IMG/VR virus record: IMGVR_UViG_3300000301_000085
Strand: one strand, 5' to 3'
From: a virus
Taxonomy: Duplodnaviria > Heunggongvirae > Uroviricota > Caudoviricetes
Length of the DNA stretch: 19,785 nucleotides
The notes below the pieces were generated by a model. The model ran no database searches and was not told where the DNA came from. It was given only the letters and a program-made list of their open reading frames with translations. Positions 1,337-19,670 of this stretch are shown here, piece after piece (the stretch's first letter is position 1; the number at the start of each line of letters is the position of its first letter). Both the position numbers and the translations under genes were made by a program.

Positions 1337-2293
1337 TTAAATTTTTACATTGGTCAGTGCAGCGATAGCCTTATCGTGCTTATTCGCCAGAGAGCAGTAC
1401 CACTTCACACGGGTACGTACTGCGTCTTTGTTCTGTACAGTACCAATGTTTTCAACAACGATACCTGCGTTGTCGCCGCCATACAGACCAGTAACGCCGT
1501 TCTCTTCTGACAGATGCAGGCAGTAGATGCTTGCTTTGCCAGCATCGGTCGGGATGAAGTCGTTGATGATGAACGGAACGCCGTTATGACACAGCATCGG
1601 ACGACCGAAGTTCTCCATCATGATTTCAGACGGACCTACGTTTACTGTACGCAGCAGCGCACGGTAAGCACGCAGGTGCTCTGAACGCATCATGATGCAG
1701 TCAGCACCAAGATCTTTCACCGCATCGACCAGTTCGTCGAACATAGAGAAAGTCATAGATGCACCGGCGATATCGATCTTCTGATCTGCGTGCATCAGGC
1801 GTGGAATGCCGTCAAACGCCTTGTTGTTGGAGCTGGAGTCACCCAAAATCAGGTTGCGACGGACCGCACGAGCCAGACCTTTANNNNNNNNNNNNNNNNN
1901 NNNNNNNNNNNNNNNNNNNNNNNNNNNNNNNNNNNNNNNNNNNNNNNNNNNNNNNNNNNNNNNNNNNNNNNNNNNNNNNNNNNNNNNNNNNNNNNNNNNN
2001 NTGTCGGCCATAGTGGTCGCCAGGAATTTATCAACGTCTACGTCACCAGCCAGAATACGCAGTTTCGCAACGCATTCTTCGAAGGTTGCTGCACCTTCAG
2101 GGATGGTGTCGTTAACGTCGATGAAGGTAGCTTCACTCAGCGTTTTTTCACGGTTGTACAGATATGCCTTTGAATTAATTTTCATAAAAGGCAGGATGGC
2201 AAACAGGTCATCGCGATCGATGATAGTTTCGATCACACCCTGTTCAAGTTCGTTGTTAGACAGCTTTTCAGCTTCTTCACGCAGTAATGGCAT
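1337..2293 (-). CDS. putative major capsid protein
   Basis: 318-aa ORF (118 nt masked) in the canonical slot after portal and scaffold; size and position only, no motif proof. Confidence 0.6.
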   Translation of the reverse strand: MPLLREEAEKLSNNELEQGVIETIIDRDDLFAILPFMKINSKAYLYNREKTLSEATFIDVNDTIPEGAATFEECVAKLRILAGDVDVDKFLATTMADXXXXXXXXXXXXXXXXXXXXXXXXXXXXXXXXXXXXXXXXKGLARAVRRNLILGDSSSNNKAFDGIPRLMHADQKIDIAGASMTFSMFDELVDAVKDLGADCIMMRSEHLRAYRALLRTVNVGPSEIMMENFGRPMLCHNGVPFIINDFIPTDAGKASIYCLHLSEENGVTGLYGGDNAGIVVENIGTVQNKDAVRTRVKWYCSLANKHDKAIAALTNVKI

Positions 2294-3227: not shown

Positions 3228-3596
3228 TCACTCGTTCTCTTGAGTAGATGAGTCCCCATTCCCTCGGGGTTGATCTTGCCCGCTTTCTTGGGCTGTACCA
3301 CGATCATAAGTAAGTACTGACTTATTTTCAAGGGTATTTAGATCATTTTTTGGAGGAAAATTCAAGAGATCTTTGTCAAATTCCTTTTTCATCGCCTCAG
3401 TAATGTTCGGGAAAATCTTCTCAATAAGCATTTCCATCTGGTGACGACGTACAGAGTCCGGTGCCTGAAGTAATGACAGTTTCTCGGCAACAGAAAATTC
3501 ATCAGTAAGGCCACGAATATCGAAACTTTCTGGATACGCAATTAAAGAGTGGTCTTCGTCCAGATCTACCCCCATCCATTTCGCAACCAGTAGCAT
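3228..3596 (-). CDS. hypothetical head-morphogenesis protein (5' end uncertain, may start inside masked segment 3637-3719)
   Basis: Open frame distinct from the portal frame; first unmasked ATG at 3596-3594, just after portal stop 3607; acidic C-terminus. Confidence 0.4.
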   Translation of the reverse strand: MLLVAKWMGVDLDEDHSLIAYPESFDIRGLTDEFSVAEKLSLLQAPDSVRRHQMEMLIEKIFPNITEAMKKEFDKDLLNFPPKNDLNTLENKSVLTYDRGTAQESGQDQPRGNGDSSTQENE

Positions 3597-3606
3597 GATT
3601 TGGCGT

Positions 3607-4884
3607 TCAGCCCTTTCCAGACGCTCTGCTTTTGTGNNNNNNNNNNNNNNNNNNNNNNNNNNNNNNNNNNNNNNNNNNNNNNNNNNNNNNNNNNNNNNNN
3701 NNNNNNNNNNNNNNNNNNNCAAGCAAGCTATTTACACGCTGGAAGTCATACATTTTTGCGGCACCAGATGAATTATCGATTCCCTGTGCGTTGTCCTGCT
3801 TCGTTCGCTCACCAGCTACACCAACTGAATGGTAGATTTCGTTAATCACCGTCTTAATCGTAGTGATGATCATCTGAGCTTGTTTCGGGTCTGGTGACAG
3901 ATAAAACGGCTGGTTTCCACCTTCAGAATCGTAGGTGAAGACTCGCTTTGTGCCCATTTCAAGCACTTTAGTGTGGTTTTCATCACCAGGTAAAAGCGAC
4001 TGTACCGGTATAGCCAACTGGCTAAATGTCTGATCCTGAATAATGGCATCAAGGTTTGACAGATAGTTTGCAACCGCACGATCAAGATAAGCGATATCAT
4101 CGATCAACGATGGGCTGAAATACGGTGATTCACTTTCTCCAATACAATCAACAGGAAACACAGGAACTACGCCGAGATTATGCTCACCGCTATCCTCTAA
4201 AATAACTTTTGCCTGACGGCGACCTGCTCCACCAGCGCCCTTCTTCACTTCCTCACGGAACAGATACCACTCGTTTTGTGTCCACAGACGATAACGTTGG
4301 TATTCCTGACCTGTAGAAGTAAAAGGATCTGCGTCATCACGAGCGACTTCCACAATTAACGCCCACAACATATTCCCGTCGTCGTCCCATGCCACATCAA
4401 GCATTTGCTGAGGTGAAATCCAGTAGGCGTAGGCGCGAGCATCTTTCTTTTTCTCGTCAGCTACTGACTCAACATCACCACTCATCGTGCTATCGACAAC
4501 AACCCATATGCGACCGTAAATAGACGACTGCAAATCAATAGCGGCCATAAATGAGTCAATAGAGGCATTCTGGCGAGTCGCACGTTTCCAGAAATTGCGG
4601 ATCTGCTCTGGTGCCTCTTCGATATTTCTATGAATGTCTTCTTTAAAGAGATATTTGTTGATGAGGTTTACCACCTCACGAGTGTGGTTGAAGCGATAAG
4701 CACGTTCAACTCGCTCCTTAAACTCCTGATCTCCCTCTTTAAAGTAACGAAAGATATTGTCTGTAAACCAACCACGCCCGCCAGCGTAAGTGCTGGCGAG
4801 GAAGTCCCAATGTTCTTTTTTCTTTTCGTATTCCGGGTGGCGTCGCGCCACCAGATCCTTAATTTGTTTGTCGTTCAATTCCAT
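3607..4884 (-). CDS. putative portal protein
   Basis: 425-aa ORF immediately downstream of terminase large subunit; TAAGGT SD before ATG 4884. Assignment by synteny and size. Confidence 0.6.
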   Translation of the reverse strand: MELNDKQIKDLVARRHPEYEKKKEHWDFLASTYAGGRGWFTDNIFRYFKEGDQEFKERVERAYRFNHTREVVNLINKYLFKEDIHRNIEEAPEQIRNFWKRATRQNASIDSFMAAIDLQSSIYGRIWVVVDSTMSGDVESVADEKKKDARAYAYWISPQQMLDVAWDDDGNMLWALIVEVARDDADPFTSTGQEYQRYRLWTQNEWYLFREEVKKGAGGAGRRQAKVILEDSGEHNLGVVPVFPVDCIGESESPYFSPSLIDDIAYLDRAVANYLSNLDAIIQDQTFSQLAIPVQSLLPGDENHTKVLEMGTKRVFTYDSEGGNQPFYLSPDPKQAQMIITTIKTVINEIYHSVGVAGERTKQDNAQGIDNSSGAAKMYDFQRVNSLLXXXXXXXXXXXXXXXXXXXXXXXXXXXXHKSRASGKG

Positions 4885-4910
4885 TTGAATAACCTTAGAT
4901 AATTACTTAC

Positions 4911-6167
4911 CTATCGTGAACCACCAAGAATAACACGGTTTTTGACTGGATACCTACGATGTACTGGATAGCCCAATGCGTCTGCACTATGCTCAATGCC
5001 ACCTGTCTTATCCATATCTCGTGTTCCAGGCTTGTAGATGACTTTTTCCAGTGAATCAATCAAATGCTTGCACTTCGGATCGATATACAGCCGGATATCT
5101 CCAGATGCGGTCATCAGCATTCGGTTAACAGCATTAACACGATCCGCAATTGGCGGGTGCTTTTTCGAATAATCGACACGTAAGAATCCCTTCTCTTTGA
5201 ATATGTCGACGTCAGACTCCCCGCGAGCATGTTGGCGATAAGCACCTGCCGGATCTGGAAATACCGTTATCTGTGATTTCCAGCGCCAGAAGCGTCTCTC
5301 AAGCTCATCACAAACCTCTGCCGTGTTAGAGGAAAAGAGCACCAATTCATCAATTGCCCATAGCTCACCATTTGGCTGAGGTTGCAAAATTACTGAAGAC
5401 ATCGGGTCAATGTTGAAGTCCTGCCCTACCCATATAGGCAACCGAGGGTTGAACTGAAGCGGTTTTACATGCACGTTACGATCGAACGGGTAGTAAACGC
5501 GCCCGGACATGTTCTCAAAGCTCGCCAGGTACTCCTGAGCGAACGATTTCGGGTCCATATCGTTCTTAGCAGCTTCAATTTCCGCCGTAGGTACAAACGG
5601 AGAATCGGCAGTTACAAACTGCCAGCTCTTCCACTGTCCCTTTCTTTGCAGCTCTACGTTCTGGCCTATAGTCCACAGTTTGTGAAATTCCGAGAAGCCT
5701 TTTGGCGTACCAATGATCAGTGCACCGCCGCGTGTCGATGAAAGAGTAGGTCGTAACACCTTGTACCAGGTGTCAGCCTTCATATCCTGAAATTCATCAA
5801 GCACTACAAAATGCAACGCTACGCCGCGCAGAGTGTCAGGCTTATCAGCACCTTTGAGGGCGATCTCCGAACCGTTCTTCAACACGATTGTCATCGTGGT
5901 GTCGTTCTTTTTCCTAACCCACTTACGAGGCAGAACTTCCTGTAGATCGTCCCACAAAATCTGGCGAGCCATCTGGTATGTAGGAGCGACATACCAGACC
6001 CTTTGCTTTTTTTCCTTTGCCGCCGCACGAATAATAGTGGAGATCGACAACCGGGATTTTCCCCAGCGTCGACCAGCACAAACAACTTTAAATCGATGCG
6101 GAGACTGGAAGACTTTCATCTGTCCAGAATGCAGTTGCACAAGACTGAGCGAGGACGGGATTGCCAT
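4911..6167 (-). CDS. terL: terminase large subunit
   Basis: Walker A VCAGRRWGKS, Walker B-like LHFVVLDEFQD, LIIGTPKG, C-terminal nuclease-like acidic motifs (VGQDFN, IEHSADALGY); start overlaps upstream stop (TAATG at 6165-6169). Confidence 0.9.
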   Translation of the reverse strand: MAIPSSLSLVQLHSGQMKVFQSPHRFKVVCAGRRWGKSRLSISTIIRAAAKEKKQRVWYVAPTYQMARQILWDDLQEVLPRKWVRKKNDTTMTIVLKNGSEIALKGADKPDTLRGVALHFVVLDEFQDMKADTWYKVLRPTLSSTRGGALIIGTPKGFSEFHKLWTIGQNVELQRKGQWKSWQFVTADSPFVPTAEIEAAKNDMDPKSFAQEYLASFENMSGRVYYPFDRNVHVKPLQFNPRLPIWVGQDFNIDPMSSVILQPQPNGELWAIDELVLFSSNTAEVCDELERRFWRWKSQITVFPDPAGAYRQHARGESDVDIFKEKGFLRVDYSKKHPPIADRVNAVNRMLMTASGDIRLYIDPKCKHLIDSLEKVIYKPGTRDMDKTGGIEHSADALGYPVHRRYPVKNRVILGGSR

Positions 6168-6799
6168 TATTCGTCCTCCCCTTCACTTCCATCATCTGTC
6201 GCATCAAATTCGCTTAGAGCTTCTTCTTCCAACGTCTCAAGCAATTCGTCATCGATGATTTCAGGCTCGTCGTCTTCCTGACGTAATTTCGCCACCTGGG
6301 AAGGCGTAAGCTCACCAAATACCAGGTTCGGAATTTCTTCCTCGTCATTTTCCGCATGATCCATGCCCAATGCTTTGGACGAAACTTCAAAGCATTTTGC
6401 AAGGGTATTACTGGCTCTCTGTAAGCTCTTGAGAGAATCCTCAATCGCCACTAAAGGCTTACCCTCACGTTTGGCCGTAGTGACTTCGACCATCACCATC
6501 TGCCCCAACGCATACGCCCAGCCGTCATAACGTGTACGACGTTCTTCTATCTTTTCCGCACGGGCTTTAGCGCGAAGCTCTGCGTCAGATTTAAGAGACT
6601 CACGAACCATCTTCCCAACAGAGTCCGCGCCTTTCTCTAATCCTCGCTTTTTGAAATGTCTGGAGAGTGTTTCACGACGAATGCCGTACTCTTCCTCCAG
6701 CTTTGAGAGTGTATATTCGCCTGACGTCCATTTGGCTTCAGCTTCGGCCCACTCCGCTGGTGTCAGGCGAGTTTTTACCTCGTCTTTTTCGACCGTCAT
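6167..6799 (-). CDS. terS: putative terminase small subunit
   Basis: 210 aa, N-terminal HTH-like segment (TLSKLEEEYGIRRETLSRHFKKRG), strongly acidic C-terminus, translationally coupled to terL. Confidence 0.6.
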   Translation of the reverse strand: MTVEKDEVKTRLTPAEWAEAEAKWTSGEYTLSKLEEEYGIRRETLSRHFKKRGLEKGADSVGKMVRESLKSDAELRAKARAEKIEERRTRYDGWAYALGQMVMVEVTTAKREGKPLVAIEDSLKSLQRASNTLAKCFEVSSKALGMDHAENDEEEIPNLVFGELTPSQVAKLRQEDDEPEIIDDELLETLEEEALSEFDATDDGSEGEDE

Positions 6800-6805
6800 A
6801 GATCC

Positions 6806-6838
6806 CTCTAAAACACACAGAGCGCGTCCATGCGCTCT
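6806..6838 (-). terminator. terminator-like hairpin plus U-tract in the leader just before the terS SD (possible attenuator)
   Basis: Plus-strand AGAGCGC-GTCCAT-GCGCTCT (6819-6838); the minus transcript reads hairpin then GUGUGUUUUAGAGGGAUCU-AUG. Confidence 0.45.
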
Positions 6839-6879
6839 AAAACAACTTGTTTACTGCATCTGCTAACCAACTTGTTTTC
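6839..6879. promoter_or_regulatory. two copies of the AACAAcTTGTT palindrome (operator-like) in the late-operon leader
   Basis: AAAACAACTTGTTTA at 6839-6853 and ACCAACTTGTTTTC at 6866-6879; same core as elements upstream of the small genes at 16.6-19.7 kb. Confidence 0.5.
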
Positions 6880-6994
6880 TGGGGTGTTTAATTAGGTCTG
6901 GCATGTCTTACGAAGCCTGCTTCCGTATATATTTAATAAGTTACTTATTATTTATATATACAGATGCAGGTCTTTAAATAAGCTCCCAGACCGA

Positions 6995-7261
6995 TTACAT
7001 CACCAGTAACTTCGCTTTGGCTCGACCTAAAGTGGTTAACCCAAGAGTCCGGCGGTGATAGCGATTGTCACTGCGTTGGCGCGTATGCCCTTTCTCCACC
7101 AGCCCCTTTTTTATCAGAGCGCGAATTGAGAACTGGATACTTTGCTTGGTTGTCTTGTACGGCAAAACTTCAAGCAATTCGTCCAGGTCAAGTAGATGAC
7201 CTCGCTCATAACCGAGATTGAGCGTTTTGATGATGTCCTTTTGTTTATCGGTTAACGTCAT
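6995..7261 (-). CDS. small winged-helix/HTH-like DNA-binding protein (candidate regulator)
   Basis: 88 aa, basic; AAGGA SD before ATG 7261; helix-like segment TTKQSIQFSIRALIKKGLV; sits between the cassette and the late leader. Confidence 0.5.
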   Translation of the reverse strand: MTLTDKQKDIIKTLNLGYERGHLLDLDELLEVLPYKTTKQSIQFSIRALIKKGLVEKGHTRQRSDNRYHRRTLGLTTLGRAKAKLLVM

Positions 7262-7361
7262 GGCAAATCCTTATGCCGGTAAAGCAATTTCTAACGGTTT
7301 ATCCAAAGGTTGTTTGTCGAATGCCAGCAGTGGCAGCGTGTCAGGCAGTCGACGGCCAAAG

Positions 7362-8316
7362 TCAGGGTTTCGGTACACACCATACAACGGANNNNNNNNN
7401 NNNNNNNNNNNNNNNNNNNNNNNNNNNNNNNNNNNNNNNNNNNNNNNNNNNNNNNNNNNNNNNNNNNNNNNNNNNNNNNNNNNTGTGAATGTCCTTGAGC
7501 AGCTTCACAATGCTGGCCTCGTCCACCAGACTGTCGGCAATGTCCTGAATCGTCGTGCCACGATTCCGCCCAGCTTTTGCCAGGGAACTGTTCTTATGGT
7601 AGTCCGCCACCAAATCGCGCAGCGCACGGCGACGACGAGACTCGCTCATAGCGAACAACTCTTTGACGATCGCCTCGTTATCACCCGGGTCGGAGCGGAA
7701 ATGGCGCTGGAACACACGCAGTGCACTTTCATAGCTCTTCGGTCGCTCAGGGCGGATGAACTTAAACCCTGCTTTCATGGCGAAGGGATTGTATTTGCTC
7801 ATCGAGGACTGGATCTCAATGATTGGCCGGTCATGCATCCTGCTAACCAGGTTAATCATTCGATAAGAGACGCCTACGCCACGATACTGAGTATCCACAA
7901 CTGAGCGACTGATCACCGCAAAGTTGTTATTCACGTACCGACCCCAGTANNNNNNNNNNNNNNNNNNNNNNNNNNNNNNNNNNNNNNNNNNNNNNNNNNN
8001 NNNNNNNNNNNNNNNNNNNNNNNNNNNNNNNNNNNNNNNNNNNNNNNNNNNNNNTTGGTTTCAACTTAGGAAACATGCGGTGGCGAGGTGCCAACAGTAG
8101 TTTCGGGTAAGCCATAACCACGACGCCCACCAGACGGTCATCAAGTTCGCAGCGATAGTAAGTTGGCGCGAAAGGTTTGCCGTCTGTTTTGTAGTGAAGC
8201 GACTTAAGAGCGTGCCAGTCCTCTACAGTCCCCTTTGTAACAGTCATTCGCTCCAGAAAGTCCAGATGACGCGGAAACTCTTCAGGGCGGTAGCGTTTAA
8301 TGATGATGTCCGTCAT
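7362..8316 (-). CDS. GNAT-fold acyltransferase-like protein with C-terminal extension (interrupted by masked segments 7950-8054 and 7392-7483; frame differs across the first)
   Basis: N-part LVGVVVMAYP (beta strand); C-part FAVISRSVVDTQYRGVGVSYRMINLV (R-G-x-G motif A-like) and NPFAMKAGFKFI (motif B-like); start ATGA-coupled to the upstream ATPase stop (8313-8316). Confidence 0.45.
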
Positions 8317-9064
8317 GAATGGACCTCATCATGAATACCATTGTGATATTCCACCTTCACGCGTTCTTTGTAGTGCTTGGTGATCTGCATATCAGGGCGC
8401 AGCGCGTTCTTCAGGTCTTCGTGAGTCGTCGCCACCATTACCGTCGCACCAACCTTTCGAGCGGCACGCTGGAGGTTAGACGCCACAACCTGAGCGGTTA
8501 CACGGTCGAGAACAGCGCCGAACTCGTCAGCAGCCCATACTTTAGCGCCTGACTCAATCAGTTTGGCAATCTTGAGACGATATTTCTGGCCGTCTGACAT
8601 TTCAGAAGGCTTGCGAACAAACAGATATGCATCGTTCAGACCAGCCATAGATANNNNNNNNNNNNNNNNNNNNNNNNNNNNNNNNNNNNNNNNNNNNNNN
8701 NNNNNNNNNNNNNNNNNNNNNNNNNNNNNNNNNNNNNNNNNNNNNNNNNCGCATCACTGGTCGTTTTGCCCAACTGATCGATGACGTTAACCTCATTATC
8801 GAAGGTAAAATCATCGATGGAGGCTACAGACAGCCCTTCATCCTTCATCTGTCGTTGCAACTCGCGCAGCACAACGGATTTGCCGGAACCGGATTGGCCG
8901 GTGATGTACACCACATCGCCCTGCTTCACTTCCAGCTCCAGATTGTCGTAAAGCGTCCACTCTTTTTCGTCCAGGCCAAGCCCGAACGACTCAGCGATTT
9001 CCAACGTGCGCGTGGTTTTATTTACGCGTGTCTGAAACGATACGTTGATGATGTATTTGCTCAT
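8313..9064 (-). CDS. ABC-type ATPase (nucleotide-binding-domain-like, ~250 aa; two ORF segments, frame changes at masked segment 8654-8749)
   Basis: Walker A YITGQSGSGKS; signature-like SDGQKYRLKIAKL; Walker B/D-loop VWAADEFGAVLD; H-loop MVATTHED; ATGA coupling to the ParB-like gene at 9061-9064. Confidence 0.7.
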
Positions 9065-9729
9065 GCAGCCATCTCCCCGGAAGAGATCTTCTCCGCATAT
9101 GCCACAAATGCGTCTACCCCGCTTTCTCCCGTCATTTCTTCCATATGGGCAAGCAAATCACCAACAACAATGGCAGAGCCAGCAGGGAGCGTTTTAAAGC
9201 CCAATACGTCGACAACACGTACTTCTTCCGCTGCAACTTCACGACTGATCTCGGTGTGTTCATCCTTCTGTCGTTTAGTTTCTTCGCCAAGATCGATAAC
9301 TAGCGAGTCGGTGTCCATTTCTTCTGTCATACTGCCAACGAGAACATTCAACTCACGCTCTTCAAAGCCGAAAACCTCGATATCGTCCAGAACAAGCGAC
9401 TCAAGCTCTTTCTGTAGCTTAATTGCATCGTAATCAATGCTGGCAAGTCGGTTATCTTCAAGGCGCTTCGCACGAACCTCGTCATCACTGAGATCATCGC
9501 GAACAATAACCGGTACGCGCTCAAGTCCAGCAAAAATTGCAGCCTCACGGCGGCCGTGGCCAGTAATAATTACGTCGTTCTTATCGACCGTAATTGGCTG
9601 GTCAAATCCGCGCTTTTTAATGGCTGCGGCCAGATCTCTGATCTGCTGTTCATCATGCTTTTTGGCATTCATCTCATAGGGAATAAGATCTGCCGGGTCG
9701 CGATATACGATTTCAAACTTTTTGGTCAT
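9061..9729 (-). CDS. ParB/Srx-like N-terminal-domain protein (paralog 2)
   Basis: ITGHGRREAA (GxxRxxA ParB box); ATG at 9729-9727 overlaps the upstream stop (TAATG). Confidence 0.75.
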   Translation of the reverse strand: MTKKFEIVYRDPADLIPYEMNAKKHDEQQIRDLAAAIKKRGFDQPITVDKNDVIITGHGRREAAIFAGLERVPVIVRDDLSDDEVRAKRLEDNRLASIDYDAIKLQKELESLVLDDIEVFGFEERELNVLVGSMTEEMDTDSLVIDLGEETKRQKDEHTEISREVAAEEVRVVDVLGFKTLPAGSAIVVGDLLAHMEEMTGESGVDAFVAYAEKISSGEMAA

Positions 9730-10409
9730 TACATACGCTCCTTGTAGTAGTCGACCAGCCACACCAGAGCCTCACCAGCGTTCTCCATTTCATTACCGGT
9801 GTTAATAGCCTGCTCTTTGATGATGTTTTTTATGGTTTCTGCAACACGATCTGACGCATCGAAAGTTACTTTGAAGCGCATGGTCTGATGTTCCGCACCC
9901 ACACGTTCGGTTTTCTCTCGTTTGTCGGTATCGACAGGCTCATCACTACCACGAGACAACGCCTCCAGTGCTTCAAGGTCGATTGCCGCCTCTTTTGCTA
10001 AAACCATCGAGATTTCGTCGTCATACGGAGCGATTTCAGACAGTTGATAGTCAAGTTCTGACTGAATTTCTTCAATGAAGCGTTGCAATGCGATTTGGTC
10101 GTCTTCACCGTATCGCTCGTTGTCCACCAGTGACATCTGTTTAGCTACGACATCGCTAATTTTGCCCACAGAAAGCACCGGAACCGTTGAAATTCCTTGC
10201 TCAATAGCAGCACGCCAGCGATGTTCACCGCCGAGGATTTCAAAAAATCCATCTTCAAGTTCACGAGCCAAAATTGGCTTAAAAAAGCCCAATTTTTCGA
10301 TAGAACCTTTCAGTTTTTCAAAATTCTGCGCACCAACCGAATTGGTGTTCCAGGTATTCGGGCGAAGGTTGGCAACATCAACCTGCAAAATCGTGATTTT
10401 TACATCCAT
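9729..10409 (-). CDS. ParB/Srx-like N-terminal-domain protein (paralog 1)
   Basis: ILGGEHRWRAA ParB box; ATG 10409 preferred over GTG 10427; first gene of the leftward operon. Confidence 0.75.
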   Translation of the reverse strand: MDVKITILQVDVANLRPNTWNTNSVGAQNFEKLKGSIEKLGFFKPILARELEDGFFEILGGEHRWRAAIEQGISTVPVLSVGKISDVVAKQMSLVDNERYGEDDQIALQRFIEEIQSELDYQLSEIAPYDDEISMVLAKEAAIDLEALEALSRGSDEPVDTDKREKTERVGAEHQTMRFKVTFDASDRVAETIKNIIKEQAINTGNEMENAGEALVWLVDYYKERM

Positions 10410-10491
10410 TTTATTGCTACAATCCACTAAGTAATCACTTACTTATTATAATAGCCAAATAACATACAAAAGGCACTAAGGAAAGAGGTTT
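10410..10491. promoter_or_regulatory. divergent promoter region with palindromic operator-like site
   Basis: TATAAT at 10447-10452, palindromic with its minus-strand counterpart; inverted repeat TAAGTAA-TCAC-TTACTTA at 10428-10445; AAGGAAAGAGG SD before ATG 10492. Confidence 0.5.
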
Positions 10492-12131
10492 ATGACTGTT
10501 CGGATTGTATCTAACGCAGTAAATGCGCTTATTTCTGGCGCAGATGACAAGGTAAAGCAACTGGTGCAGCAAATGTTGAGCTACGAAGTCGAGACTGGCG
10601 ACTGGAAGGGCACAAGCACGATGTTCAACTGGAGTAAAAACTCGTTCCCTGCTGGCTTTGCCAAGCCTGTAGCGGCGAACTTGAACAAGGCGGGCATCAA
10701 ATGTGTTCATATCCGCAAAGACAAAGCCCCGGCGCTTGGTAAACCAAATCCGGCGGTTAACCCATTCCCATACAATCCTGATTATGCATATCAGGATCAG
10801 ACTGTGGAAACACTGGTTCGAGAGGGAATGATGATTGCGCAGATCGCTACTGGTGGCGGGAAATCTAACGTTGCCTGCAAAGCAGCTGCACGTATCGGTC
10901 GAATGACATTATTTTTAACAACCCGCTCTGTTCTGATGTTTCAAATGGCCGAAAACTTCCAGAGATCCATCGACTACCGCGCCGAAAATGGCGAACCGTG
11001 GTTAAAAGACCAAAAGGTTGGAGTCATTGGCTCGGGTGAGTTCCAGGTATCACGACATATCAACGTCGCTACAGTTCAAACTCTGGCAAGTTTCCTTGAA
11101 GAACCACCACGCGATGCAACACCAGATAAAAAGAGCTACCACCTCAAACGTCGGGAGCTAGTGAAACGCTTCCTTTCAAGTGTGTCTCTGCTTATTCTGG
11201 AAGAAGCGCATGAGTCTTCAGGCTCTAATTTCTATGACATTGCCAGATTATGTGTGAACGCAGACTATCGTCTGGCGCTTACGGCCACGCCGTTCATGAA
11301 GGATTCTACAGAAGCCAACATGCGTCTGATGGCTGTGGCCGGTCGAATTGAAATTAAAGTCACAGAAAAGTACCTGATTGATCGAGGCATTCTGGCAAAA
11401 CCGTACTTCCTTTATCATAAAGTTGCTTACAAGCCAGACGAGGTCAGAATCAAGGCGGAACTTGCCAACAAACACCTTAATTTTAGAGTTGGTATGAGCA
11501 CCGCCTACCAAAAGGCTTATCAGTTGGGGATCGTGTATAATTTGGGACGTAACNNNNNNNNNNNNNNNNNNNNNNNNNNNNNNNNNNNNNNNNNNNNNNN
11601 NNNNNNNNNNNNNNNNNNNNNNNNNNNNNNNNNNAGGCCATAGTGCGCGAGGCATTGCTTTATAAGCAACATTCACTCAACTGCATGACTCTGGTTCGTC
11701 TTAAACGCCACGGGCAAATCCTGATGGAGATGATGAAGGAGTCAGGTCTTAAAGTTGATTTCATCTATGGGGAATCTAACCAGACGACAAGGCAAGCAAA
11801 GCTGAATAGTTTAGCGTCTGGTGAAATAGATGTTTTAATAGGCTCGACTATTCTGGATGTTGGTGTTGATGTGCCAAGCGTTGGTGCGGTCATTCTTGCT
11901 GGTGGTGGGAAAGCAGAAGTTGAAATGAGACAGCGTGTCGGTCGTGGCTTACGAGCCAAAAAAAATCAGGCAAACGTGTGTTTTATCACTGATTTCATTG
12001 ACATTAGCAACAAATACCTGTTGTCTCACTCTTATGAGCGAAAACACATCATCGACACCACACCTGGCTTTGCAGAAGGTGTATTGCCTATTGATGGAGC
12101 ATTCGATTTTGGAGTTCTGAAACGAGATTAG
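10492..12131 (+). CDS. superfamily-2 (DEAD/DEAH-like) helicase; two ORF segments across masked 11554-11634
   Basis: Motif I IATGGGKS; motif II LILEEAHES; motif III LALTATPF; C-terminal motif VI QRVGRGLR; ~110-aa N-terminal extension. Confidence 0.8.
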
Positions 12132-12438: not shown

Positions 12439-12873
12439 ATGAAGTCTCCCATACTGTTCACTTTCTGTTCTAAAACTAACATGAAATACTCGCTTCTCCC
12501 TCTACTAACGTTACCAGTGTTGATGCTTACCGCGTGCCAATCACGTCCAATATCAATCCATGACGCCAAACCAGCACCGCAGGCCAAAGTGTTCAAGTAT
12601 CAAAGCGCAGCGCCAGCTACGTTGGTGGTAATGAGAGACACAGGTTTTGTAGGAGCTGGATGTGATGCTTCCATTTTCATCAATGGCGAAACTGTCGCAA
12701 AACTGGCTACAGGCGAAAAAGCGACTTTTCATTTAAATGCCGGAGAANNNNNNNNNNNNNNNNNNNNNNNNNNNNNNNNNNNNNNNNNNNNNNNNNNNNN
12801 NNNNNNNNNNNNNNNNNNNNNNNNNNNNNNNNNNNNNNNNNNNCTCTTGAAGGTGCAGGTTTATGTGCTCTAA
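12439..12873 (+). CDS. putative lipoprotein (3' end uncertain, masked 12748-12843)
   Basis: GGGAGA SD; hydrophobic signal with lipobox-like LTAC then Cys (MKYSLLPLLTLPVLMLTAC); alternative start at 12481. Confidence 0.55.
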   Translation: MKSPILFTFCSKTNMKYSLLPLLTLPVLMLTACQSRPISIHDAKPAPQAKVFKYQSAAPATLVVMRDTGFVGAGCDASIFINGETVAKLATGEKATFHLNAGEXXXXXXXXXXXXXXXXXXXXXXXXXXXXXXXXLLKVQVYVL

Positions 12874-12909
12874 ACCCCGCTCGTCAAGAGCGAGAAACGA
12901 CTCTGAAGA

Positions 12910-13440
12910 ATGGAGACACAAAAGCGTTCAGGGTGTTCACCAGCAATTCTGGTGACATCGACATTCTGCCAACAACTCTGTGATGACATGACAACCAAAG
13001 ATATTACCTACGGTATCCAAGCTGAACTCTGGCCGCGAGATTACACTAACGTTGAAAAANNNNNNNNNNNNNNNNNNNNNNNNNNNNNNNNNNNNNNNNN
13101 NNNNNNNNNNNNNNNNNNNNNNNNNNNNNNNNNNNNNNNNNNNNNNNNNNNNNNNNNNNNACAAATTCCTGTAAGGGTCACTCTCGAAGATGGCCAGGCG
13201 TTTTGCATGTACGTTTATGGCCTCATGCCATCTCGTAACAAAGTTGACCTTTGCCCAGCCCCTTTTGACAAAGAAAATCGTATAAGGCTCCCACTTGAAC
13301 GCATTAGTACAATTGAATCAGGTGTGGTTGANNNNNNNNNNNNNNNNNNNNNNNNNNNNNNNNNNNNNNNNNNNNNNNNNNNNNNNNNNNNNNNNNNNNN
13401 NNNNNNNNNNNNNNNNNNNNNNNNNTCAAAGGTCGACTAA
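12910..13440 (+). CDS. hypothetical protein(s); two masked segments, continuity unproven
   Basis: Open frame through masks 13060-13160 and 13332-13425; no recognisable motif; weak SD. Confidence 0.3.
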   Translation: METQKRSGCSPAILVTSTFCQQLCDDMTTKDITYGIQAELWPRDYTNVEKXXXXXXXXXXXXXXXXXXXXXXXXXXXXXXXXXXQIPVRVTLEDGQAFCMYVYGLMPSRNKVDLCPAPFDKENRIRLPLERISTIESGVVXXXXXXXXXXXXXXXXXXXXXXXXXXXXXXXXSKVD

Positions 13441-13539
13441 CAGTTCACCCTGATTATGTCGATAATCGGCCATCACGCCGCGATTTTTTTGCAATTTGCA
13501 ACCAAGCCTACAAAGCAAACAAATCTATAAGGGTGTACA

Positions 13540-13668
13540 TGGCGGATGGCCGTGAAATTGAGGGGGTGTCAGCAGGCGCAGATGCTTGTCAGGTTACACT
13601 ACGTGTCGAGAACGGTAGAAAAATAGTTGTTTTGTTCGATTGGGTTGAACGAATTTTGCCTTTTTGAG
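13540..13668 (+). CDS. small hypothetical protein (42 aa)
   Basis: AAGGGTG SD; ATG 13540; stop 3 nt before the next start; below the ORF-track size cutoff. Confidence 0.3.
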
Positions 13669-13670
13669 TT

Positions 13671-13979
13671 ATGAAATCGATATTGTTACCACCATTATTT
13701 TTACTTTGCTCAGTTGCGGCAAATGCAATGGACTATAAGCCTGTCATTCAGTCGCTGATGAATGACGTGTGCTCAACGTCTCAGAATGTATCAGTTTGCA
13801 TGTATCAATTTTCGGCAGCCGTAAAAGCAGGAAAAGCGATAGGTGAGAGTGTGGAACTGTGTAAGAAAGTGGCAAATGAAGAACGGGCAATGTTGGATTG
13901 CGAATCTAGCGAGTCATCGGCACAGTTCGTTGATGCGCTATTTGACACCAATCGTAAGGCTGTAGAGTCTGTTCAATAA
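13671..13979 (+). CDS. small secreted (periplasmic) protein, four Cys in mature part
   Basis: Signal peptide MKSILLPPLFLLCSVAANA with AxA cleavage motif; followed by a terminator. Confidence 0.55.
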   Translation: MKSILLPPLFLLCSVAANAMDYKPVIQSLMNDVCSTSQNVSVCMYQFSAAVKAGKAIGESVELCKKVANEERAMLDCESSESSAQFVDALFDTNRKAVESVQ

Positions 13980-14147: not shown

Positions 14148-14204
14148 GCAAAAAATTTAAAAAAAACACTTGCAATCTTTTTTCGCATATCGATAATTGA
14201 ACTC
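14148..14204 (+). promoter_or_regulatory. strong sigma70-type promoter with upstream A-tract
   Basis: -35 TTGCAA (14170-14175), 16-nt spacer, -10 GATAAT (14192-14197); A-tract AAAAAATTTAAAAAAAA upstream (UP-element-like). Confidence 0.6.
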
Positions 14205-15186: not shown

Positions 15187-15567
15187 ATGTTTGTTCTTAT
15201 CGCTGGCGTTAACGTCCATAATGAATATTATGTTAATCGCATCGCTGGGATAGCTGGTTACGCTGGGCGCTCAGTCGAGTTTATCGATGAAACAACGCGT
15301 AAAATTGATTTATTGAGCGACCAGGAGCGAAAAAAAGCAGACGTGAACGACGCTGATATATTTTTAATGTTAAAAGCGTTTGTAGAAATGGGATTTAAAA
15401 TCAGTTTACACAAATNNNNNNNNNNNNNNNNNNNNNNNNNNNNNNNNNNNNNNNNNNNNNNNNNNNNNNNNNNNNNNNNNNNNNNNNNNNNNNNNNNNNN
15501 NNNNNNNNNNNNNNNNNNNATGGGCGCTTTTTTCGTTTCCAATACTCCCACCATAACGCGCCAATGA
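15187..15567 (+). CDS. hypothetical protein (3' end uncertain, masked 15416-15519)
   Basis: TAAGGAG SD before ATG 15187; N-terminal 76 aa readable; the post-mask tail may be out of frame. Confidence 0.45.
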   Translation: MFVLIAGVNVHNEYYVNRIAGIAGYAGRSVEFIDETTRKIDLLSDQERKKADVNDADIFLMLKAFVEMGFKISLHKXXXXXXXXXXXXXXXXXXXXXXXXXXXXXXXXXXXMGAFFVSNTPTITRQ

Positions 15568-16603: not shown

Positions 16604-16675
16604 GATTAATTCCTTATCGTAAATAACAAATTGTTTTCTTGTTGGTGTTAATTATCGTTGTACGAATAAGGCGTC
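16604..16675 (-). promoter_or_regulatory. cassette promoter plus AACAAaTTGTT palindrome (element E1)
   Basis: Minus strand TTGACG...GATAAT then AAAACAATTTGTTAT then SD; about 35 nt near-identical to E2 and E5. Confidence 0.5.
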
Positions 16676-16780
16676 AAAGTGGAAAGTTGCGGTAGCCGGA
16701 CGGGAACAGGTGGGTTTGTCGGTTGCCTGGAGGTAAGAGGTTGGTGTTTTTAGCCTGCGGGAAACAGGATGGTCATTTAA

Positions 16781-16800
16781 GGCCACCAGCATTGGTGGCC
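16781..16800 (-). terminator. conserved GC-rich hairpin 8 nt after the stop (terminator-like, weak U-tract)
   Basis: GGCCACCA-GCAT-TGGTGGCC. Confidence 0.4.
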
Positions 16801-16807
16801 TTAATCT

Positions 16808-17089
16808 TTAGTGGAGCAGACCGATGTCGATGGTATCCCCTGAATCATCCACACGGATCATCAGCATGGCAAAGGCGTTTAGTGGATAGCTTGCGTGCCA
16901 TTCAGGGAAGCGGTCATCTCGCATGAAGTCGGCAATGTCGTAAACGCATCCCTCAAAGTGGAAGAATCGCGTGCTTACCTGCTCGTCATAATCCACATGA
17001 TCCATTTCTTGCTGTTCTGTTTCCGGCAAGTCCAGCCATGATTCAAGAAATACATTTTGTGCTTTAGGGGTAATGGTGAAATCAGTCAT
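16808..17089 (-). CDS. small strongly acidic protein (94 aa)
   Basis: GAGGA SD 7 nt before ATG 17089; about 20 D/E against 5 K/R (DLPETEQQEMDHVDYDEQ, RVDDSGDTIDIG). Confidence 0.55.
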   Translation of the reverse strand: MTDFTITPKAQNVFLESWLDLPETEQQEMDHVDYDEQVSTRFFHFEGCVYDIADFMRDDRFPEWHASYPLNAFAMLMIRVDDSGDTIDIGLLH

Positions 17090-17098
17090 GAGCATATC

Positions 17099-17165
17099 CT
17101 CACTGCGTAAACATGTTGTTTTCTTGTTGGTGTAATTATCGCAGTGTAGATAAAGCATAAAAGAA
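17099..17165 (-). promoter_or_regulatory. cassette promoter plus AACAtgTTGTT palindrome (element E2)
   Basis: Minus strand GATAAT then AAAACAACATGTTT then SD; flanked by inverted repeat CACTGCG/CGCAGTG. Confidence 0.5.
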
Positions 17166-17251
17166 GTTAATACAGGCTGAATACACAAGAAAGGTTCTGG
17201 AAGTTGATAGCAAGGTTTCAAACTAACCTTCGGTTATTAAAAGTCATTTAA

Positions 17252-17272
17252 GACCACCAATGCTGGTGGCCT
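17252..17272 (-). terminator. conserved GC-rich hairpin (inverted-orientation copy of the one at 16781)
   Basis: GACCACCA-ATGC-TGGTGGCC, 11 nt after stop 17283. Confidence 0.4.
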
Positions 17273-17282
17273 TAATAATTAT

Positions 17283-17849: not shown

Positions 17850-17876
17850 TAAGGCAGAAAACAAATTGTTATCGGG
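17850..17876 (-). promoter_or_regulatory. AACAAaTTGTT palindrome upstream of gene 17425..17799
   Basis: Plus-strand AGAAAACAAATTGTTATCGG. Confidence 0.4.
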
Positions 17877-17884
17877 CATAAGAA

Positions 17885-17907
17885 AATGGCGCGGTTTACG
17901 CGCCATT
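17885..17907 (-). terminator. intrinsic terminator after gene 17917..18312
   Basis: AATGGCGCG-GTTTA-CGCGCCATT; the minus transcript continues UUUCUUAUG. Confidence 0.55.
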
Positions 17908-18750: not shown

Positions 18751-18830
18751 CACAACTCCGTAAACAACTTGTTTTCTCAATGGCGTAAATAATACCAGTA
18801 AGAAAACGGCTACAAAGCATATTGATCAGG
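18751..18830 (-). promoter_or_regulatory. cassette promoter plus perfect AAACAAcTTGTTT palindrome (element E3)
   Basis: Minus strand TTTGTAGCCGTTTTCTTACTGG-TATTAT then AAAACAAGTTGTTT then SD; about 85% identical to E4 over ~60 nt. Confidence 0.5.
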
Positions 18831-18877
18831 TGCATGAGCGATATGCAGGTTCTTCCCTGCGGCTACAGATTAAGTTA

Positions 18878-19234: not shown

Positions 19235-19310
19235 AAAGCAATCCTTAAACAACTTGTTTTCTGAATTGCGTAAACAATACCAGTAAGAAAACGGCCACAA
19301 AGTATATCGT
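19235..19310 (-). promoter_or_regulatory. cassette promoter plus AAACAAcTTGTTT palindrome (element E4)
   Basis: Minus strand TTTGTGGCCGTTTTCTTACTGG-TATTGT then AAAACAAGTTGTTT overlapping the SD. Confidence 0.5.
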
Positions 19311-19349
19311 TACGGTGCTGCGCTGCCCCGGAGGTTAATAGCGACAAAA

Positions 19350-19373: not shown

Positions 19374-19670
19374 TTAATCTTCGTCGTCCGGGAACTCGCT
19401 GTGTACCGCGCCCACCAGCTCCCGCTTTTCATCTTCACTCAGCAGGTGCCAGATATNNNNNNNNNNNNNNNNNNNNNNNNNNNNNNNNNNNNNNNNNNNN
19501 NNNNNNNNNNNNNNNNNNNNNNNNNNNNNNNNNNNNNNNNNNNNNNNNNNNNNNNNTTCTGCCGGGACGAACGACCACAACTTGCGGTACAACTCCGGCC
19601 CCACTGCATCCAGACACTCAGCCAGGGAATCCACGCCCCACACCTCAACCGTCACAGGCATCTTAATCAT
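19374..19670 (-). CDS. small acidic protein (about 98 aa, middle masked 19457-19556)
   Basis: GAGGA SD before ATG 19670; acidic C-terminus EFPDDED. Confidence 0.5.
   Translation of the reverse strand: MIKMPVTVEVWGVDSLAECLDAVGPELYRKLWSFVPAEXXXXXXXXXXXXXXXXXXXXXXXXXXXXXXXXXXIWHLLSEDEKRELVGAVHSEFPDDED

Follow-up and report, generated by a model that had tools for sequence, protein, structure and literature searches.

The window is the whole stretch of viral DNA analyzed here (19,785 nt, from an IMG/VR virus record). It carries Ig-like, capsid, DUF6651, portal, TerL, DNA-binding, 296-aa protein and ABC ATPase genes, two ParB-like genes, a helicase gene and small genes, an order and content shared with pTHO-010-2, a plasmid of E. 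coli THO-010 (NZ_AP022542.1). Eleven N-runs of 81–118 nt each interrupt the window (Table 1), and the 12 unmasked segments between and beside them amount to 18,715 nt.

Table 1 Restored genes and N-runs in the window (true bases are those found at each site in NZ_AP022542.1).
Feature	Position	Strand	Product or gene affected	N count for true bases	Excess (nt)	Excess mod 3	Frame	Relatives or reference CDS
Capsid gene	1337..2293	-	291 aa restored, no stops					
N-run	1884..2001		capsid gene	118 nt for 37	81	0	kept, 27 spurious codons	
Portal gene	3228..4884	-	524 aa restored, no stops					RefSeq CDS in L004 3635-5209, 'phage portal protein'
N-run	3637..3719		portal gene	83 nt for 1 (A)	82	1	shifts	1 nt in 10/10
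296-aa protein gene	7271..8316	-	two N-runs; restored, no stops					RefSeq CDS in L004 7596-8486
N-run	7392..7483		296-aa gene	92 nt for 16	76	1	shifts	16 nt in 13/13
N-run	7950..8054		296-aa gene	105 nt for 26	79	1	shifts	26 nt in 14/14
ABC-type ATPase gene	8313..9064	-	221 aa restored, no stops					RefSeq CDS in L004 8483-9148
N-run	8654..8749		ABC ATPase gene	96 nt for 10 (ACAACCCAAG)	86	2	shifts	10 nt in 15/15
DEAD/DEAH-box (superfamily 2) helicase gene	10492..12131	+	519 aa restored, no stops					RefSeq CDS in L004 10576-12135
N-run	11554..11634		helicase gene	81 nt for 1 (G)	80	2	shifts	1 nt in 16/16
N-run	12748..12843		154-aa gene 12439-12983 (+)	96 nt for 16	80	2	shifts	
N-run	13060..13160		174-aa gene 12988-13667 (+)	101 nt for 23	78		in frame	
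N-run	13332..13425		174-aa gene 12988-13667 (+)	94 nt for 17	77	2	shifts	
N-run	15416..15519		hides stop codon of 76-aa ORF starting 15187	104 nt for 17	87			
N-run	19457..19556		ORF 19374-19670 (-)	100 nt for 22	78		in frame, 26 spurious codons	

As its nucleotide sequence shows, the window comes from an SSU5-type E. coli phage-plasmid and is virtually identical to pTHO-010-2. The SSU5-type group includes Salmonella phage SSU5 and the Escherichia phages Cyrano, CMS-2020a and PhiR41_1 (PMC7969092), and the window was collinear at the nucleotide level with genomes of this group over the structural, ParB (partition) and helicase module, at 79–99.5% identity to the named phages; identity was 79–82% against SSU5 and Klebsiella relatives, and 96–100% against E. 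coli members. All 12 unmasked segments matched NZ_AP022542.1, 10 of them exactly; the other two differed by one SNP and two homopolymer bases, three differing bases altogether. The counterpart region in pTHO-010-2 (positions 61488–80386) is free of N-runs, unlike the window, and is shorter by 884 nt. Likewise, alignments with the best complete E. coli plasmids covered approximately 18.9 kb against the 19.8-kb query, a deficit equal to the summed excess of the N-runs over the bases found at their sites.

We then compared the length of each N-run with the spacing of its flanks in relatives. At all 11 sites, the flanks were nearly contiguous in finished relatives, with 1–37 nt between them versus 81–118 Ns in the window, and this spacing was identical in every relative that had both flanks (4–16 relatives per site, with no exception). 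The N count exceeded the true bases by 76–87 nt (mean 80.4, sd 3.5), and N length was correlated with true length (r = 0.94). The hidden bases, including those at both 1-nt sites, were invariant or nearly so among 10–16 relatives, and the window's own hidden bases are presumably the same.

Frame behavior was examined by comparing the frame set by the start of each gene with that set by its stop. Dividing the span by 3 leaves a remainder for the portal, the 296-aa protein, the ABC ATPase and the helicase gene, and the two halves of each of these genes lie in different frames; the capsid gene and ORF 19374-19670, in contrast, have spans divisible by 3 and keep their frame. These observations bear out what had been noticed in a sequence-only reading of the window, which reported frame switches across 3637-3719, 7950-8054, 8654-8749 and 11554-11634, noted that three of these four masks (83, 105, 96 and 81 nt) have lengths divisible by 3, and found the capsid gene and ORF 19374-19670 in frame across their masks. 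All four sites it named do shift; however, its list was incomplete, as seven of the 11 N-runs do so (also 7392-7483, 12748-12843 and 13332-13425), and the 296-aa gene, which it called GNAT-like, contains a second N-run (7392-7483) that it overlooked. Furthermore, 3637-3719 is not a junction between the portal gene and a next gene, as had been proposed, but lies inside the portal gene (codon 389 of 524), which appears in the window as two ORFs (3607-4884 and 3228-3722); the supposed next gene, 3228-3636, is therefore the portal C-terminus.

The excess modulo 3 correctly predicted the frame behavior at 11 of 11 N-runs. Lengths unrelated to codon phase would be expected to give 7.3 frame-shifting N-runs; since the observed seven match this chance rate, the frame switches carry no biological signal. 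An excess divisible by 3 leaves the gene looking in frame but gives it 26–29 spurious codons.

The frame switches are almost certainly artefactual, produced by placeholder N-runs whose length exceeds that of the sequence they represent, with each gene being a single uninterrupted ORF. Each N-run of 81–118 nt would replace 1–37 real bases and so add approximately 80 positions (76–87) to the window; an excess not divisible by 3 would make whatever lies downstream within the gene appear in another frame. Substituting the true bases for the Ns yielded ORFs of 524, 296, 221, 519 and 291 aa, none with an internal stop and all equal in length to the annotated CDSs in pTHO-010-2, PhiR41_1 and Cyrano and to gene calls in five further assemblies, and a protein look-up returned five intact contigs without Ns. 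The sequence-only reading had left two explanations standing, N-runs that do not preserve true length and genuine frameshifts or split genes, and had proposed that unmasked sequence giving single continuous frames would indicate a masking artefact. The essentially identical public record gave such frames, and its spacing supports the former explanation; the provisional merging of the gene halves in that reading was thus right.

Profile matches of the restored portal protein and helicase also support uninterrupted genes. The phrog_145 portal profile matched residues 4–504 of the portal protein in one stretch across the N-run position (E 6e-141), phrog_886 matched residues 1–295 of the 296-aa protein, and Pfam ABC_tran matched the ABC ATPase (E 6e-13). 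The helicase N-run is located at codon 355, with the DEAD/ResIII domain (residues 99–270) on one side and Helicase_C (364–462; both Pfam) on the other. For the 296-aa protein, Pfam Acetyltransf_10 scored below cut-off (E 0.037), and a search by sequence returned no relative in the PDB; the GNAT-like label is, on this evidence, weakly supported at best.

Alternatively, the source genome may be truly frameshifted or split, with pseudogenes of the portal, 296-aa protein, ABC ATPase and helicase concealed under the Ns. In its present form the window does show a change of frame across the N-runs, the bases beneath them are not readable, and some PHROGs families match only the N-terminal (1–250) or C-terminal (292–524) part of the portal, so that split annotations may exist. 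However, no extra indel is needed, because the N-run excess over true spacing accounts for the frame offsets fully, and the readable flanks agree with those of a record whose genes are intact. A comparison with intact homologues, covering the readable sequence and not the bases under the Ns, revealed no indel or stop codon. Every annotated or gene-called relative has single CDSs, and SSU5-type phage-plasmids, in which the portal, 296-aa protein, ABC ATPase and helicase genes are each annotated as one CDS, show neither gaps nor split genes at the N-run sites; no relative, whether among 16 loci or among the annotated records, was in a split state. It is implausible that the portal, the helicase and three more genes were all inactivated together within 19 kb free of other mutations, and we consider true splitting very unlikely.

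Recoding is a further way in which gene halves in different frames could be joined. Recoding and split genes do occur in phages, as in the −1 frameshift of the lambda-type tail chaperone G/GT, and genuine cases have a slippery site and an overlap in readable sequence that are conserved in relatives. The window resembles such a case in that one protein is encoded by neighboring ORF parts whose frames differ, and this apparent frame change is the one observation in favor of programmed ribosomal frameshifting or other recoding here. Unlike the lambda-type case, each gene is one continuous single-frame ORF in all relatives of the window, which leaves recoding no break to bridge; finding these ORFs uninterrupted in identical sequence already refutes this explanation, whose probability is vanishingly small.

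The near-constant excess would also be expected if the N-runs were length-true and a fixed-size repeated element of approximately 80 nt had inserted at all 11 sites, each mask then spanning the insertion plus 1–37 adjacent bases. We searched public contigs for flanks with the corresponding spacing at four sites and found none at any of them. For the helicase, flanks 70–95 nt apart occurred in zero contigs in IMG/VR, JGI metagenomes and GTDB genomes, whereas flanks 1 nt apart were recovered from six IMG/VR contigs, positive controls indicating that the spacing search worked; insert-sized spacing at the portal, 296-aa protein and ABC ATPase sites was likewise absent from IMG/VR. In addition, the mask would have to overrun each insert by an arbitrary 1–37 nt, 10 of the 11 inserts would lie in coding sequence, with seven breaking the frame and the portal and helicase among the genes hit, and the remaining sequence is identical to that of insert-free plasmids. 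Insertion under length-true masks is extremely improbable; the candidate insert, a repeated, very small mobile element or an intervening sequence that removes itself, residing even in the portal and helicase genes of an SSU5-type phage-plasmid that is ordinary in other respects, is assigned an equally minute probability.

As for how placeholder N-runs arose, they probably mark gaps in a draft scaffold whose sizes were estimated, or come from a masking step that did not preserve length. Scaffold gaps (INSDC assembly_gap, Ns of estimated or unknown length) similarly join blocks that lie almost side by side in finished genomes, with an N count that is not the true length, and the short blocks between gaps in the window (171, 216, 466 and 599 nt) are reminiscent of a fragmented draft; however, a uniform overestimate of approximately 80 nt is not known to be a property of such gaps.

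The uniformity of the excess is systematic, which counts against the artefact reading. Masking triggered by content was rejected, as no relative fetched has these hidden bases masked, and randomly drawn N lengths were rejected given the correlation between N length and true length. One conjecture is that SNP bubbles in a de Bruijn graph gave rise to the N-runs, each N length then being the gap + 2(k−1) with k = 41. The mean excess fits these numbers, and all true gaps are under 41 nt; nevertheless, the data do not support a simple origin of this kind, as the excess varies and the hidden bases hardly do among relatives.

The importance of these findings lies in annotation only. Coordinates and gene models in the window must not take the N-runs as length-true, and pTHO-010-2, which is unmasked, should serve as the template for modeling every gene that crosses an N-run. 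Where an ORF enters or leaves an N-run, as in 3228-3722, 11643-12131 and 15187-15567, its boundary is artefactual, and split helicases, recoding or other biology should not be inferred from the frame switches.

The SNP that separates the window from pTHO-010-2 lies at window position 1864, and the homopolymer differences at 14166 and 15361. At the latter two positions the window, unlike pTHO-010-2, has the family-consensus state. A 43-mer carrying the window's A-run variant had no match in GTDB genomes or JGI metagenomes, and was found in two IMG/VR contigs, both only approximately 98% identical.

Sequence comparison identified the unmasked DNA of the window as that of an SSU5-type phage-plasmid, a group described previously (PMC7969092). 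The top match was plasmid pTHO-010-2 of E. coli THO-010 (NZ_AP022542.1), to which 10 of the 12 unmasked segments are exactly identical; the other two differ from it by one SNP (position 1864) and by one base in each of two homopolymers (14166 and 15361). Escherichia phages CMS-2020a, Cyrano and PhiR41_1 are 96–99.5% identical to the window, Salmonella phage SSU5 and Klebsiella relatives about 80%, and a related plasmid is present in 260 of 5,426 complete E. coli genomes.

We read the true lengths of the 11 N-runs (81–118 nt each) from the spacing of the window's 12 segments in pTHO-010-2. The same spacings were repeated in all other fetched relatives with both flanks (phage records, NCBI assemblies, ENA metagenome assemblies and IMG/VR; 4–16 loci per site, no exceptions). 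The true gaps are all 37 nt or shorter, and the excess, N length minus true length, is nearly constant at 80 nt and systematic across all 11 N-runs (mean 80.4, s.d. 3.5, range 76–87). The summed excess is 884 nt, leaving 18,901 of 19,785 nt, which equals the 18,899-nt pTHO-010-2 span plus two homopolymer bases.

N-runs and the four named genes whose frames switch across them (window positions; for genes, length is the span as given)
Feature	Position	Strand	Length (nt)	True length (nt)	Excess (nt)	Remark
N-run	1884-2001		118	37	81	
N-run	3637-3719		83	1	82	
N-run	7392-7483		92	16	76	
N-run	7950-8054		105	26	79	
N-run	8654-8749		96	10	86	
N-run	11554-11634		81	1	80	
N-run	12748-12843		96	16	80	
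N-run	13060-13160		101	23	78	
N-run	13332-13425		94	17	77	
N-run	15416-15519		104	17	87	
N-run	19457-19556		100	22	78	
Portal gene	3228-4884	-	1657			not multiple of 3
296-aa gene	7271-8316	-	1046			not multiple of 3
ABC ATPase gene	8313-9064	-	752			not multiple of 3
Helicase gene	10492-12131	+	1640			not multiple of 3

N length tracks true length closely (r = 0.94), so the N-runs are not random in size, nor of one fixed size. The short blocks between them (171, 216, 466 and 599 nt) look like those of a fragmented scaffold whose gap sizes were estimated; the excess fits 2(k−1) with k = 41 numerically, which we give as conjecture only. Content-triggered masking was rejected because all relatives show the hidden bases unmasked, and no polymorphism of these bases was seen among the relatives, which leaves a strain-bubble origin without support from this comparison.

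The frame switches are an artefact of N-runs whose length is not preserved, not a real feature, and the genes crossing them are intact single ORFs; this conclusion does not depend on how the N-runs arose. The observation made in the sequence-only reading is correct: in the portal, 296-aa, ABC ATPase and helicase genes the start and stop codons set different frames, three of the named N-runs (105, 96 and 81 nt) are multiples of 3, and the capsid gene (1337-2293, 957 nt) and ORF 19374-19670 (297 nt) stay in frame. Excess modulo 3 is 1, 1, 2 and 2 at the four switching sites, and 0 at the capsid and ORF 19374 sites. The list of four in the sequence-only reading was incomplete, as the frame also shifts at 7392-7483, 12748-12843 and 13332-13425 (excess modulo 3 non-zero), giving shifts at 7 of 11 N-runs against 7.3 expected from random lengths.

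We consider it very improbable that the Ns hide real lesions or insertions in the source. A gapped pattern with the helicase flanks 70–95 nt apart had no match in IMG/VR, JGI metagenomes or GTDB genomes, and corresponding patterns for the three other sites (portal, 296-aa and ABC) had none in IMG/VR; as positive controls, the gapped helicase pattern finds the window itself, and its 1-nt version finds six IMG/VR contigs.

Putting pTHO-010-2 bases in place of each N-run restored uninterrupted ORFs, the single continuous frames anticipated for a masking artefact: portal (524 aa), 296-aa protein, ABC ATPase (221 aa), helicase (519 aa) and capsid (291 aa). These lengths equal the annotated CDSs of pTHO-010-2, PhiR41_1 and Cyrano, and gene calling on five additional contigs gave the same lengths. 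The helicase N-run falls at codon 355, flanked by DEAD/ResIII (residues 99-270) and Helicase_C (364-462), consistent with its earlier placement between motifs III and IV. The PHROG portal profile covers portal residues 4-504 in one stretch, which makes window 3228-3636 the C-terminus of the portal; the N-run 3637-3719, previously placed at a portal/next-gene junction, lies at codon 389 inside the portal. Two PHROGs families cover only parts of the portal (phrog_12458, residues 1-250; phrog_20858, 292-524), so this portal seems to be annotated as two genes in some phage records.

The sole window-specific substitution, C at 1864, 20 nt from an N-run edge, replaces F with V in the capsid protein; neither pTHO-010-2 nor any of the six other relatives examined carries C there, and the substitution could be an error near a contig end. 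In pTHO-010-2 an A-run and a T-run (positions 13935 and 15129 of its locus L004) are each one base shorter than in the window and in 6/7 and 7/7 other relatives, respectively. Because of the T-run difference, the 76-aa ORF that starts at window 15187 is truncated to 59 aa in the RefSeq CDS. Both are probably homopolymer errors or mutations in the pTHO-010-2 record, not in the window.

The genes of the soluble ABC-type ATPase and of the 296-aa protein that follows it share 4 nt (8313-8316) and adjoin two ParB-like genes. In Cyrano the 296-aa protein is annotated 'ABC-type ATPase fused to a predicted acetyltransferase domain', so the pair may represent a fused family in two-gene form; the similarity of the 296-aa protein to GNAT is only sub-threshold (Pfam Acetyltransf_10, E 0.037). 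The restored 154-aa protein (12439-12983, plus strand), whose homologue is labelled 'hypothetical' in RefSeq, starts with a lipoprotein-type signal (…LLTLPVLMLTAC…) read by eye.

Four small minus-strand genes that are unrelated to one another (160, 93, 103 and 109 aa) each have directly 5' of them a conserved 60–77-nt module (67–87% identical), at 16617-16679, 17102-17163, 18755-18833 and 19240-19318, with an inverted partial copy at 17856-17885. The module carries promoter-like hexamers and a palindrome, AACAA-N-TTGTT, just ahead of the ribosome-binding site, and looks like a common promoter and operator for the small-gene set. Downstream of small minus-strand genes sits a GC-rich hairpin repeat, GTCATTTAAGGCCACCAGCATTGGTGGCCTTAA (16772-16810 and 17243-17281, 82% identical), which resembles a terminator. 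One such small-gene cassette (16806-17242) is missing from CMS-2020a, PhiR41_1 and an IMG/VR contig (L016).
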